A stretch of DNA of 64,000 nt from an uncultured cyanobacterium (GCA_963703315.1 OY969811.1:1088001-1152000), one strand, 5' to 3'; positions 37,322 through 41,397 are shown, counted from the first letter of the stretch. Program-made: numbers and translations. The notes: generated by a model from the letters alone, not told the origin.

Positions 37322-38224
37322 TTAATCAAAACCTAGTAGGTCAAAAATTTCGCGATCCTTGAGGGGTTGAGCATATAAAGGCTCAGCATTTTCTAGCATC
37401 CCTTTAGCCAGCTTCAGATATTCCTGCTGCACTTCGACAACTTCAGGATCAGGTTCCATTTCAAATACTGTACATTTTTTCAAACGACTGCGACGAATGG
37501 CATCAACGGTGCGGAAATGCGCCAAAGTTTTTAGACCAACGCGATCATTGAACTTATCGATCTGATCAGTGCCTTCGCTACGGTTAGCAATGATGCCACC
37601 GAGACGCACGCGATAGTTCTTTGCTTTCGATTGAATCGCGGCAACGATCCGATTCATTGCAAAAATAGAATCAAAATCATTGGCAGTCACGATCAAGCAG
37701 TAATGCGCGTGTTGCAAGGGAGCCGCAAAACCACCACAAACCACGTCACCCAATACATCAAAAATTACGACATCGGTATCTTCGAGTAAATGGTGTTCTT
37801 TAAGAAGCTTGACGGTTTGACCTGTGACATAGCCGCCACAACCAGTACCTGCGGGAGGACCACCAGCCTCAATACACATCACGCCGTTGTAACCTTCAAA
37901 CATGAAGTCATCGGTTTTCAACTCTTCCGAATGGAAGTCAACGGTTTCGAGAATGTCGATGACGGTGGGAACCATTCTCTTAGTGAGAGTGAAGGTGCTG
38001 TCATGCTTAGGATCGCAACCGATTTGTAATACGCGCTTGCCAAGATGAGAGAATGCTGCTGATAGATTGGAAGAGGTGGTGGATTTACCGATACCGCCTT
38101 TACCATAGACGGCGATTACCAAAGCCCCTTCAATGACCATGCCGGGGTCTTGATGTACCTGAACACTACCTTCTCCATCTTCACATTTAGTAATTGATGG
38201 TGGATGCGCTGTTAAAACTGCCAA
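37322..38224 (-). CDS. chlL: Light-independent protochlorophyllide reductase iron-sulfur ATP-binding subunit
   Basis: [46 protein letters not shown] start after AAGGAG. Confidence 0.96.
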
Positions 38225-38260
38225 AATAAACTCCTTATATAAATAATTTGAATTTTAAGA

Positions 38261-38360
38261 CCCTCACCCCTAGCCTCTCTCCCGCAGGAGAGGGGAACTA
38301 GAAAGAAAATATTAAACTCTTACTCCCCCTCTCATTGGGAGAGGGGGTGGGGGGTGAGGG
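38261..38360. repeat. CCCTCACCCC...GGGGTGAGGG repeat between chlB and chlL
   Basis: Same ends and internal hairpins as 20392-20498. Confidence 0.8.
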
Positions 38361-38363
38361 AAA

Positions 38364-40055
38364 TTACTTCCCGATCGCTGCTTTTGCTTCGTAGAGAGTA
38401 TCTACGGTGATCGAAGTAATACCGCGATCGCTAGCAAATTTCTCAGTATTGCGTTTGATTTTGCCGCGTACAAAGAAGGGAATCTTCTTCAACTCCGCTT
38501 CACCATCGGCACTCCAAGTTACACCTTCAACCTCTTGCGCTAAGGGTGTGAGAACGGTTTGATTAGCATTACCAACAGAATTAGTAGAGGCGATCGCATG
38601 ATCAGTTCCTCTCGCAGTAGGTGATTCAGGTACTCGCAATTCTTGAGATGGTGCTGTATGCAAATGGCTCATATGTCCTTCCGCAAACTCAAAGTCTTCC
38701 TTGAACATTCCAATCAAATGCTCCTCCAGACCCATCATCAAAGGATGTACCCAGCTATCAAAAATCACATTCGCACCTTCCCAACCCATTTGTGGTGAGT
38801 AACGAGCAGGCACATCTTGAACGTGGATTGGTGCAGAAATTACCGCGCAAGGGATACCCAAGCGTTTGGCAATATGTCGCTCCATCTGAGTGCCAAGCAC
38901 TAGTTCTGGAGCAGCTTCAGCCACCTTTGCTTCTACAGCTAAATAGTCATCACTAATCACAGCTTCGAGTCCATGCTTTTTCGCAACTTCGCGCACTTCT
39001 CTCGCAAATTCACGGCTATAGGTTCCAATACCAACGAGGGTAAAGCCTAATTCTTCCGTAGCAATTCTGGCGGCGGCGAGGGCATGGGTGGCATCACCGA
39101 AGATGAATACGCGCTTACCTGTGAGGTAGGTGGAGTCAACCGATCTCGAGTACCAAGGCAAACGGGAAGCATTGGCTTCGGCGGAAGATGAGACGCGAGC
39201 AGCATCCCAGTTTCCTAATGTGTCGGATTGCGATCGCGCTAATGCTTCACTAACGTCAATGTCCGCAACCTTACCAATTTCAGCAATAAAGTCACGGGTT
39301 GCACCAACACCGATTGGCACGGTTTTCACAACGGGTTGAGCAAAACTGCGAGTTAGCCAAGTGCAAGTGGTGAGCGCAATTTCAGGATAAAGACAAATAT
39401 TAAAGTCTGCATCAGGAATTCGCATTAAGTCAGCAGGTGTCGCGCCCATTGGTGCAACTACGTTCACATCCACGCCTATTTCCGCGAGTAACTTAATGAC
39501 TTCGCGAATATCATCACGACAACGGAAACCTAACGCCGTTGGACCAATGATGTTTGCTTTCGGGCGAATTTGAGGATCACGCTGAGGACGAGGCGTATTC
39601 GGCGGCGGTACAACAGGCAGTAGCAAAGTGCGAACTAAATGATAGAGAGTTTCGCTCGCGCCCCAATTTTCTTTTTTGGAATAGGCGGGTAATTCCAAAC
39701 TGACGATGGGGATCGGTAAGCCCATGCCTTTGGCAAGTGACCCTGGTTGATCCTGAATTAGTTCGGCTGTGCAGCTTTCGCCCACTAGCATGACTTGTGG
39801 CTTAAATCTTTCGTAAGCATCTCTAACCGAAGTTTTCACCATTTCCGCAGTGTCACCACCGAGATCACGCGCTTGGAAAGTGGTGTAAGTTACAGGCGGA
39901 CGGCGATCGCGTCTTTCGATCATCGTAAATAGTAAGTCAGCATAGGTATCGCCCTGCGGTGCATGGAGTACATAATGCACTCCTTCCATTCCTGTAGCGA
40001 TTCGCATAGCCCCGACATGGGGAGGACCTTCATAAGTCCAGAGGGTTAGTTCCAT
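38364..40055 (-). CDS. chlB: Light-independent protochlorophyllide reductase subunit B
   Basis: [37 protein letters not shown]-terminal PCP_red domain (KIPFFVRGK). Confidence 0.96.
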
Positions 40056-40104
40056 AGTTTATATCAATAAAAAATATGTATAAGTAGAGCGCGAAGCGCT
40101 CTAC

Positions 40105-41397
40105 TTATACGGTTAATCTTCTTCTTCTCTCAAGGGGACGCGCAAACAACTCTGCTAAGTCGGCGGCTTGGTCGTAACCGTGAATTGGTGAGAACACTAA
40201 TTCAATTGACCATTTGGTTGCCATACCTTCAGCTTCGAGAGGATTGGCTAAACCCAAACCACAGACAGTAATATCGGGTCTTGCCTCACGACAGCGATCG
40301 AGTTGCTTTTCCACATCCTGACCTTCCGATAGTGCTGTTCCCACGGGCAACAGATTAATTTCACTATCCATCAATAGGCGATCGATATAGGGAGTACCAA
40401 CTTCAACCAGTTCCATGCCACATTCTCTGGATAAGAAACGCGCTAAGGGGATTTCTAATTGCGAGTCTGGGAATAAAAATGCTTTGCGACCTGTGAGGGC
40501 TTGACGATAACGCTCTAGGGCAATGGTGGCTCGATTCACTTGAGGGGCGATCGCCTCTTCAAATTTGTCCTTATCCACATTCCAAGCATCGGCGGCAGTC
40601 TTTAACCATGCCGTTGTACCTTCAATGCCGAAGGGATAGGGCGATGGTAAGAGCGTTGCGCCCCTTGCCATTAGCGATCGCACGGTATCGCTCAAGAAAG
40701 GCTGAGCTAATAGTAATTTTGTCCCTTTGCCAATCGGTGGTAATTTGGCAGCACGACGTGGCGGGAAGAAGCTCACAGGAATGCCGAGCTTGTCAAATAG
40801 TCTTTGGAACTGATCTTCCACCACATCGGCAAGACTACCAACCACCATTAGGTTCGGCTCATCTTCACTGCGAGGCAGTACAGGAACCATTGATCCTAAA
40901 CAAGCATCTTCGCCTTGTGTGAAGGTGGTTTCAATGCCACTACCTGAATAATTAAGAATTCTAACTTTGGGAAAGAATCGCTGATTGAGACGTTCCGATG
41001 CTTTAGCAAGATCAAGCTTGATTACCTCAGAGGGGCATGATCCCACCAAAAAAAGAGTGCCAATATCGGGGCGGCGCTCTAGTAATTGATCAACAACGCG
41101 ATCAAGTTCTTCATTGGCATCTGCCAAACCTGCCAGATCGCGTTCACCAAGAATGGCAGTACCAAATCTTGGTTCCGCAAAAATCATTACGCCTGCCGCC
41201 GATTGAATCAAATGGGCGCAGGTGCGTGAACCGACAACTAAGAAAAAAGCATCCTGCATTTTGCGATGTAGCCAGACGATTCCCGTCAAGCCACAAAACA
41301 CCTCTCTCTGTCCTCGTTCTTTGAGTACAGCCAGATCAGTGTTGGTCTTTTGTGTATTTATGGGGGCAGGAACTTCTGTGCAAGGCTCTAAAGCCAT
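40105..41397 (-). CDS. chlN: Light-independent protochlorophyllide reductase subunit N
   Basis: [50 protein letters not shown]. Confidence 0.96.

Follow-up and report, generated by a model that had tools for sequence, protein, structure and literature searches.

The only dark-operative protochlorophyllide oxidoreductase of a Pseudanabaena genome is of the purple-bacterial/picocyanobacterial type and probably replaced the native enzyme

The 64,000-nucleotide stretch of DNA from an uncultured cyanobacterium analysed here (the window) carries on its minus strand, at 37322-41397, a chlN-chlB-chlL operon for the three subunits of dark-operative protochlorophyllide oxidoreductase (DPOR). These genes are the only DPOR of the host genome and belong to the clade of purple-bacterial and picocyanobacterial enzymes; most likely, with a probability that we put at roughly 85%, they replaced the native chlL-chlN and chlB by horizontal transfer in an ancestor of the genus Pseudanabaena. 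The type of the proteins, the lack of a canonical copy, the presence of the operon throughout the genus as against canonical genes in sister genera, and the host-like HIP1 sites and host repeat are direct observations; the history that would best explain them is that the ancestor of the genus exchanged its own genes for these by xenologous replacement and that the operon has long been resident since. An initial annotation, made from the sequence alone, had suggested horizontal acquisition or xenologous replacement of a core chlorophyll enzyme, and the suggestion is supported: the proteins branch outside the canonical clade, the host is not an alpha-cyanobacterium and its genome holds no canonical copy. 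The genes and the most telling motif lie as follows.

40105..41397, minus strand: chlN, DPOR subunit N of the purple-bacterial/picocyanobacterial type (open reading frame (ORF), 430 residues; TIGR01279 and NF002768)
38364..40055, minus strand: chlB, DPOR subunit B of the purple-bacterial/picocyanobacterial type (ORF, 563 residues; TIGR01278)
37322..38224, minus strand: chlL, ATP-dependent reductase subunit of DPOR with a BchL-type N-terminal extension (ORF, 300 residues; TIGR01281)
38153..38179, minus strand: codons for DGEGSVQVH, ChlL residues 16-24, the motif of the flexible BchL N-terminus (direct reading and alignment)

Three minus-strand ORFs thus follow one another in the order first described for this region, separated by spacers of 49 nt (chlN-chlB) and 139 nt (chlB-chlL), and the strings that had been quoted from them (the ChlB N-terminus with HAPQGDTY, the ChlL N-terminal extension and a ChlN segment) are all present. 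The chlL start codon is TTG, with AAGGAG 8 nt upstream, and the first 35 residues of ChlL are kept in other Pseudanabaena genomes, where overall identity is 95-98%. When the ORFs of the window were compared with the NCBIfam equivalog models, all three subunits scored above the DPOR cut-offs: ChlL with 441.6 bits against TIGR01281 (cut-off 345.15), ChlB with 602.8 bits against TIGR01278 (490.35) and ChlN with 514.1 bits against TIGR01279 (419.95). ChlN also scored 626.7 bits with NF002768, and a score of 899.2 with NF002790 fell slightly below the cut-off of 912.

The solved structures distinguish the types of enzyme. The top match for ChlL, ChlN and ChlB alike is 2YNM, with the Rhodobacter entries next and the canonical 2XDQ at less than half the score. 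For ChlB the values are 781.3 bits (2YNM chain D), 641.6 (3AEK chain B) and 326.3 (2XDQ chain B), for ChlN 599.9 (2YNM chain C, the best) versus 246.3 (2XDQ chain A), and for ChlL 540.8 with 2YNM chain A, in an alignment that begins at residue 11. In the alignment of ChlL with 2YNM chain A and 6UYK chain A, the P-loop GKGGIGKS, two CGG cysteine motifs and NDFDS (the DFD patch) are identical, and DGEGSVQVH is aligned with the same motif in both chains. The ligand set of the NB cluster can be read directly from the sequence as Asp36 of ChlB, in HAPQGDTY, and the cysteines of ChlN in VFCGL, SRTCAH and VGSCPSE, where the residue numbering of these ligands is our assumption. In the account of the Rhodobacter enzyme in PMC7948495, the NB cluster is held by three cysteines of BchN and one aspartate of BchB, and the roles of the BchL cysteines at the cluster are taken here as given in the same account.

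The identities of ChlB to the window protein are bimodal, at 60-95% or at 31-37%. The upper group comprises the genus Pseudanabaena (86-95%), M5B4/G407 (81%; the genome G407 and a record titled M5B4 have the same identity figures), Phormidesmis-like cyanobacteria (79-86%), Gemmatimonadota (68-76%), Proteobacteria (62-66%) and picocyanobacteria (60-72%), and the lower group the canonical cyanobacteria. Against the canonical copies of the host's own family, ChlL is 48-54% and ChlN 33-35% identical, while the locus of Phormidesmis priestleyi Ana (L030) reaches 84% in ChlB, 81% in ChlN and 88% in ChlL. The split between canonical and purple-type sequences has a Shimodaira-Hasegawa-like approximate likelihood ratio (SH-aLRT) support of 100 in the ChlB, ChlL, ChlN and concatenated trees and an ultrafast bootstrap (UFBoot) support of 100. 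The window shares with the purple-type clade its place in these trees, the DGEGSVQVH N-terminus and the N-B-(H)-L gene order; it is set apart from the canonical cyanobacterial and plastid enzymes by the low ChlB identity, by its position across the fully supported branch and by a different gene order. Identities, trees and the best structural match therefore agree with the proteobacterial or picocyanobacterial character that was first proposed. As to a picocyanobacterial affinity, the type was rightly recognised, but the nearest kin are Phormidesmis-like cyanobacteria and Gemmatimonadota rather than picocyanobacteria.

Nor is the type explained by the host being an alpha-cyanobacterium. A CsoS2 match was present in both of the picocyanobacterial genomes used as positive controls (684 and 677 bits; the picocyanobacteria are our family f18) and in neither of two Pseudanabaena genomes, the host (G000) and G422; P. 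priestleyi Ana likewise lacked a CsoS2_M match. Pseudanabaena and the picocyanobacteria are different families, and the host is placed in the former by its named relatives (P. minima at 93%, several Pseudanabaena metagenome-assembled genomes at 88-92%).

The host genome is a single contig of 4,565,174 bases, 99.67% complete with 0% contamination, of which the window is 1,088,001-1,152,000. Family searches recovered one full chlB, one full chlL and one full chlN, all inside the window, and the host genome contains no second, canonical chlL-chlN/chlB set by these searches; the ChlL search of the genome gave no match at the level of nifH. The gene for the light-dependent enzyme, LPOR, lies far from the operon, at 4,460,441-4,461,385. 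The only two other ChlB matches in the host are stand-alone ORFs of 72-85 residues resembling the C-terminal domain of ChlB, outside the window at G000:C1:2452040-2452207 and 2427829-2427978. Small ORFs of this kind are also found in nearly all genomes of the host's order.

That the operon has resided in this lineage for a long time is supported by its host-like density of HIP1 sites, by a host repeat within it and by its presence across the genus. The HIP1 sites, GCGATCGC, that had been reported for chlB and chlN are indeed there, with four in chlB, two in chlN and none in chlL; this gives 1.47 per kb in the operon, compared with 1.79 per kb genome-wide. The repeat between chlB and chlL is equally real:

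38225..38363, minus strand: chlB-chlL spacer with a dispersed host repeat and a long hairpin (blastn and RNA folding)

An element of about 50 nt in this spacer has 34 more blastn matches across the host chromosome. The repeat region folds into a hairpin of about 100 nt with a predicted free energy of -61.3 kcal/mol (z -5.5), equalled in none of 200 shuffled sequences. A contig from the RNA library of a related strain has chlL joined to chlB by 51 other letters where the repeat sits, so the insertion of the repeat is strain-specific. The same features bear on whether the operon could be an artefact, a contaminating or mis-assembled piece of proteobacterial or picocyanobacterial DNA. In favour of this, the operon has a GC content of 0.46-0.49, whereas the genome averages 0.42. 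However, the GC content at third codon positions is 0.41, the HIP1 density is that of the host, a host repeat lies inside the operon, the assembly is a single uncontaminated 4.57-Mb contig and the same operon recurs in most other genomes of the genus (see below), so that an artefact is scarcely conceivable.

The distribution of the two types is further evidence for replacement. The sample of the host's own order consisted of a single family, with 70 other genomes. Within Pseudanabaena, 44 of the 47 other genomes have the purple type, and the three that lack it are 76%, 82% and 88% complete. The purple-type DPOR is thus a trait of the whole genus and not a peculiarity of this strain. Among the 23 genomes of the family's other eleven genera, 13 (from eight genera) have a canonical ChlB, 32-42% identical to that of the window, and only one (G407) has the purple type, with a ChlB identity of 81% over its full length. 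The remaining nine gave no full ChlB match; five of these are 75-88% complete and four 97-99%. The latter four (G401, G406, G408 and G409; 2.3-2.7 Mb) had no full ChlB of either type with the window ChlB as query, which may mean that these lineages of the family, with their small genomes, no longer have a DPOR. The contrast drawn initially, that most freshwater and filamentous cyanobacteria keep chlL and chlN together with chlB elsewhere, holds in the three other genera of the family whose loci were read, those of G463, G410 and G413. Within the genus, the ChlB identity of 86-95% is comparable to that of GpmI, a housekeeping neighbour of the operon (84-90%, with one truncated match at 91%), so that the cassette looks to have been inherited vertically since the genus began; full-length GpmI matches in other genera of the family are at 65-73%.

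Further afield, 185 of 401 genomes in a sample of the phylum had a ChlB match. All 33 picocyanobacterial genomes were of the purple type (E 1e-205 or better; 65-72% identity among the matches listed), and identities of 92-100% were found in G000 and G291, both of the window's genus, and in an outlier, G151. The other 149 matches were at the canonical level, 32-37% among the matches listed. In the order of P. priestleyi Ana, represented by 151 genomes, 39 were purple-type, 100 canonical and 12 without a match at E 1e-40, and five Phormidesmis-like genomes have solely the purple type.

The outlier reveals a transfer that appears to be under way. G151 (two contigs, 5.2 Mb) belongs to a bloom-forming, Nostocaceae-like genus of another family (g18, f7) and carries chlL-chlB-[IS605-type tnpB]-chlN as a 5.9-kb island between a radical-SAM gene and mnmA-psbP-maf (L173:10866-16716, where L173 is G151:C1:3120000-3139999). 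The flank of the island is native, since it recurs in each of the 19 congeneric genomes at a DNA identity of 81-94%. Without tnpB, the island itself matches the Pseudanabaena loci L014 and L131 with a DNA identity of 95.7-96.4%, and its ChlL, ChlB and ChlN proteins are 91-96% identical to those of Pseudanabaena as compared with 27-81% for the proteins of its neighbours. No canonical chlN or chlL was found in G151. What is left of the canonical chlB is a remnant of 353 nt (L175 8919-9271; G151:C1:2018918-2019270), 95.2% identical to the 3' end of the intact chlB of a congener, the rest having been lost. The genus as a whole, at 20 genomes, has the island in three (also L180 of G478 and L181 of G477), a canonical chlB in 16 and only a chlB fragment in one. 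The same island is present in records titled Dolichospermum sp. and Nostocales cyanobacterium (L015 and L013). The island together with the chlB stump means that the kind of replacement proposed for the Pseudanabaena ancestor does happen. Two congeners show changes of another sort: in G373 the canonical chlL is in two pieces in different frames (L187, which is G373:C1:2640000-2650000, at about 4438-5227), through a frameshift or a sequencing error, and G065, the genome with only a chlB fragment, has no ChlL match. Judging from these sequences, the decay of DPOR seems to be under way in some members of the genus.

Phylogenetic trees place the window operon more closely. Their rows were picked by hand from 80 kept loci and the loci of the phylum and order searches; copies of the window's own sequence were excluded, as were incomplete sequences and, for Pseudanabaena and the picocyanobacteria, most near-duplicates. 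The ChlB tree took in 25 loci assigned outside the cyanobacteria (20 Proteobacteria, three Gemmatimonadota and two unnamed). In that tree (84 rows, LG+C20 PMSF, quick search), the purple-type Pseudanabaenaceae and the Phormidesmis-like sequences form a clade with SH-aLRT 100, this clade joins Gemmatimonadota with 95, the picocyanobacteria are united with 100, and the canonical and purple types are split on very long branches. In the ChlL and ChlN trees (LG+G4, quick) the Pseudanabaena/Phormidesmis clade appears again, and the Gemmatimonadota are its sister group with supports of 93 (ChlL) and 92 (ChlN). Concatenation of N, B and L (49 rows) gives a clan of Gemmatimonadota, picocyanobacteria and the Pseudanabaena/Phormidesmis clade with SH-aLRT 100 that is not resolved inside. 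With 29 taxa, UFBoot supports are 100 for Pseudanabaena plus Phormidesmis-like, 100 for the genus Pseudanabaena and 89 for the clan, and an approximately unbiased (AU) test rejects a grouping of picocyanobacteria with Gemmatimonadota (p 0.004). ChlB is 80-87.5% identical among Phormidesmis-like sequences and 89-95% within Pseudanabaena. Since the Pseudanabaena sequences form an exclusive, fully supported clade with Phormidesmis-like members of a mostly canonical order, there must have been at least one transfer from cyanobacterium to cyanobacterium, in which each recipient would have lost its native genes. The Gemmatimonadota locus L078 has the order bchF-bchN-bchB-bchH-bchL, which identifies the sequences as true photosynthesis gene clusters rather than stray cyanobacterial contigs, and which suggests that the N-B-L order descended from the photosynthesis gene cluster of an anoxygenic phototroph.

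Several points weigh against the replacement scenario or blur its outline. Support values were obtained by quick searches or under LG+G4 or LG+F+G4 models. The branch from the purple-type to the canonical clade is 2.4-5 changes per column, and because the purple-type root rests on it, there is little support for a nesting within Proteobacteria or for a given polarity between these and the cyanobacteria, a polarity that Sousa et al. (2013; PMC3595025) had already called unsettled. Pseudanabaena and the Phormidesmis-like group are reciprocally monophyletic, so that the transfer between them could have gone in either direction. Family searches of the host genome found no remains of lost canonical chlL, chlN or chlB, and synteny with the sister genera is too scrambled to place the lost genes. 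Finally, the sister relationship of Gemmatimonadota has a UFBoot of only 65, and the AU test kept both this topology (p 0.56) and one in which all purple-type cyanobacteria form a single clade (p 0.38).

These last values also bear on the route by which the genes arrived. The Pseudanabaena ancestor might have taken them up directly from an anoxygenic phototroph, either one resembling the Gemmatimonadota or a proteobacterium not yet sampled, independently of the Phormidesmis-like group and the picocyanobacteria. This would accord with the position of Gemmatimonadota as sister in all three single-gene trees and in the best topology of the AU test, and with the agreement between the N-B-L order and the bchN-B-(H)-L of the Gemmatimonadota locus. 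However, that position is insecure in the bootstrap and the rival topology is retained, none of the 25 loci from outside the cyanobacteria in the ChlB tree falls inside the Pseudanabaena/Phormidesmis clade, which has support of 100, and a single uptake followed by a hand-over between cyanobacteria is simpler than two separate uptakes from donors that were almost the same. A separate uptake is thus improbable.

A different possibility is that the cyanobacterial ancestor had both types, of which Pseudanabaena, the Phormidesmis-like group and the picocyanobacteria kept the purple one and the others the canonical. The purple type is found in at least four cyanobacterial lineages, the Pseudanabaena/Phormidesmis clade includes no donor from outside the cyanobacteria, and the ChlB identity between its two halves (77.5-85%) is as low as that of canonical ChlB between families (72-84%; 76-89% between genera of the family). 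Such divergence marks the event as old and, taken by itself, is compatible with differential loss, which is a further point against replacement. On the other hand, no genome with two intact DPOR types was found among those searched (401 of the phylum, 71 of the host's order, 151 of the Phormidesmis order and 20 of the genus of G151). A single family includes eight canonical and two purple genera, and three of 20 genomes within one Nostocaceae-like genus are purple, so that ancient paralogy would need many independent losses. Moreover, transfer across orders has actually occurred, at about 96% nucleotide identity in the case of the G151 island, and the clan includes sequences from a Gemmatimonadota bchF-N-B-H-L cluster. 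Ancient paralogy with differential loss is therefore very unlikely, and horizontal replacement in the Pseudanabaena ancestor remains the preferred explanation.

A broader proposal, for which the odds seem slightly better than even, is that the purple-type cassette acts as a replacement module, sufficient in itself, which continues to sweep through cyanobacteria and displaces the native, split chlL-chlN and chlB in one lineage after another; Pseudanabaena would have received it long ago and be donating it today. If this is true, repeated replacement in one direction would imply that the BchL-type, ATP-gated enzyme is at a selective advantage in cells that carry out oxygenic photosynthesis. As for possible vehicles, no ChlB match was found in 50,697 phage records, and 72,556 plasmid records gave 11 matches, ten of them full-length proteobacterial bchB at 55-63% and one at 35% identity with 29% coverage.

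The function of the enzyme is predicted to be that of its relatives. A ChlL dimer bridged by a [4Fe-4S] cluster would pass electrons, in an ATP-dependent manner, to the ChlN/ChlB heterotetramer, which would reduce protochlorophyllide at its C17=C18 bond without light; in the light, the same step would fall to LPOR, whose gene lies elsewhere in the genome. In Rhodobacter sphaeroides, the N-terminus of BchL lies over the [4Fe-4S] cluster and shields it, and it has been shown to be autoinhibitory, slowing the enzyme until ATP binds (Corless et al. 2020, PMC7948495). Because the window ChlL carries the same DGEGSVQVH segment, it is predicted by analogy to be autoinhibited until ATP is bound. Among ChlL proteins, the description of this region in the same paper allots it to Prochlorococcus marinus only (PMC7948495), and the window ChlL is a further exception to that statement.

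The other spacer of the operon also contains a hairpin.

40078..40110, minus strand: terminator-like perfect hairpin of 15 bp that overlaps the stop codon of chlN and has a T-run behind it, between chlN and chlB (15 pairs, 7 of them G-C)

Its tail is ATATTTTTTA, and it occurs once in the host genome. Of 17 Pseudanabaena-type loci, 11 have a hairpin of similar build behind the chlN stop codon (besides the window, L122, L127, L123, L018, L016, L012, L094, L017, L014 and L015), as against none of eight other purple-type cyanobacterial loci. The sequences of the lower stem differ yet stay complementary, the top is GC-rich with AGAGCGC-loop-GCGCTCT or a variant, and a T-run comes after it in eight of the 11 loci. 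From this pattern the hairpin may be an attenuator, or a stabiliser of the transcript end, between chlN and chlB. RNA libraries touch on the operon in a limited way. Only five RNA runs contained 5-10% of the sampled words. Three freshwater runs from one study gave, at 90% likeness, short contigs over parts of chlL, chlB and chlN that are mostly 90-95% alike and stem from relatives, in libraries that may hold DNA; a fourth run matched chiefly the repeat and spacer regions.

The flanks of the operon are not conserved in the genus, where only a 178-residue ORF downstream of chlL recurs (three loci). A replacement in situ was considered, but the orthologues of the genes neighbouring the canonical loci of G463 and G410 are scattered in the host genome, and the few that lie within about 120 kb of the operon, the TamB-like gene beside it among them, were not counted as evidence. 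This TamB-like gene (31113-36266 in the window) is 1 kb from the operon. Its orthologue in G410 (L184 16704-19970) is about 5.7 kb from the canonical chlL-chlN of that sister genus and likewise convergent with it. In G000, two more neighbours lie no further than about 120 kb from the operon; all of this may be due to chance.

The purple-type DPOR of picocyanobacteria is usually bundled with the transfer of the alpha-carboxysome. With the purple enzyme present throughout an early-branching, beta-type filamentous genus, in roughly one in four of the genomes sampled from a second order and in three genomes of a heterocyst-former-like genus, the DPOR swap is uncoupled from the alpha-carboxysome story. 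The new lineages and the Gemmatimonadota neighbour bear on the polarity of transfer, and pairs of close relatives with one enzyme type each offer a natural comparison of how the BchL-type gated enzyme behaves towards oxygen in an oxygen-evolving cell. On the side of annotation, amplicon surveys cannot safely rely on chlL, chlN and chlB as markers of cyanobacterial phylogeny or taxonomy. Where they deal with proteobacterial-type DPOR in cyanobacteria, earlier accounts credit it to Synechococcus and Prochlorococcus only (Sousa et al. 2013, PMC3595025; Ward and Shih 2021, PMC7842958; Corless et al. 2020, PMC7948495). Nothing placing a Pseudanabaena DPOR with BchLNB was found in the main texts of open-access papers and bioRxiv preprints. 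The kind of event is itself known; what goes beyond the literature found is how widespread the swap is in cyanobacteria, and that transfer is still going on into a genus of Nostocaceae-like genomes.

A precedent is a set of ChlL amplicons resembling P. priestleyi Ana, which Tahon et al. (2016) noted to fall among proteobacterial BchL sequences, alongside those of marine unicellular cyanobacteria. The relevant part of that study (PMC5165242) concerns an amplicon cluster of ChlL only and ascribes the grouping to shared indels; Pseudanabaena, replacement and the operon are not treated there. Phormidesmis priestleyi Ana is like the window host in having the N-B-L order and a genome with the purple type only, and its sequences belong to the nearest-neighbour clade outside the window's family; it differs in belonging to another order, in which canonical genes prevail.

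The picocyanobacterial DPOR is the best solved match (2YNM; 781, 541 and 600 bits for ChlB, ChlL and ChlN), the entry being described in PMC7948495 as the Prochlorococcus marinus ChlL2-(ChlN/ChlB)2 complex. It shares with the window operon the N-B-L order, the ChlL N-terminus, membership of the clan and its status as a purple-type enzyme in an oxygenic host. However, identities are only 60-72% for ChlB, 63-72% for ChlN and 80-86% for ChlL, the window is not its sister in any tree, the window ChlB has 563 residues as against 530, and the window host is a filamentous, beta-type cyanobacterium without CsoS2.

The purple-bacterial BchL, BchN and BchB of Rhodobacter (3FWY and 6UYK for BchL, 3AEK and 8VQI for BchNB) are in the same clade, with the same BchL N-terminal motif and DFD patch and scores of 458 to 694 bits; we take 3AEK to be from Rhodobacter. 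Proteobacterial BchB as a whole is as similar as 62-66%. In contrast to these systems, the window host makes chlorophyll rather than bacteriochlorophyll, its operon has no bchF, bchH or bchM nearby and no bchH between B and L, and the genes stand in a cyanobacterial context of HIP1 sites and host repeat.

The canonical cyanobacterial and plastid DPOR, represented by the ChlN/ChlB of 2XDQ and exemplified by the Leptolyngbya boryana enzyme (the organism names being our assumption), is a member of the same family with the same predicted reaction and is the type of the sister genera. It differs from the window enzyme throughout, with identities of 31-37% in B, 33-35% in N and 48-54% in L, with chlL and chlN adjoining and chlB apart, and with a ChlL that has no N-terminal extension, so that alignments begin only at residue 28-33 of the window ChlL.

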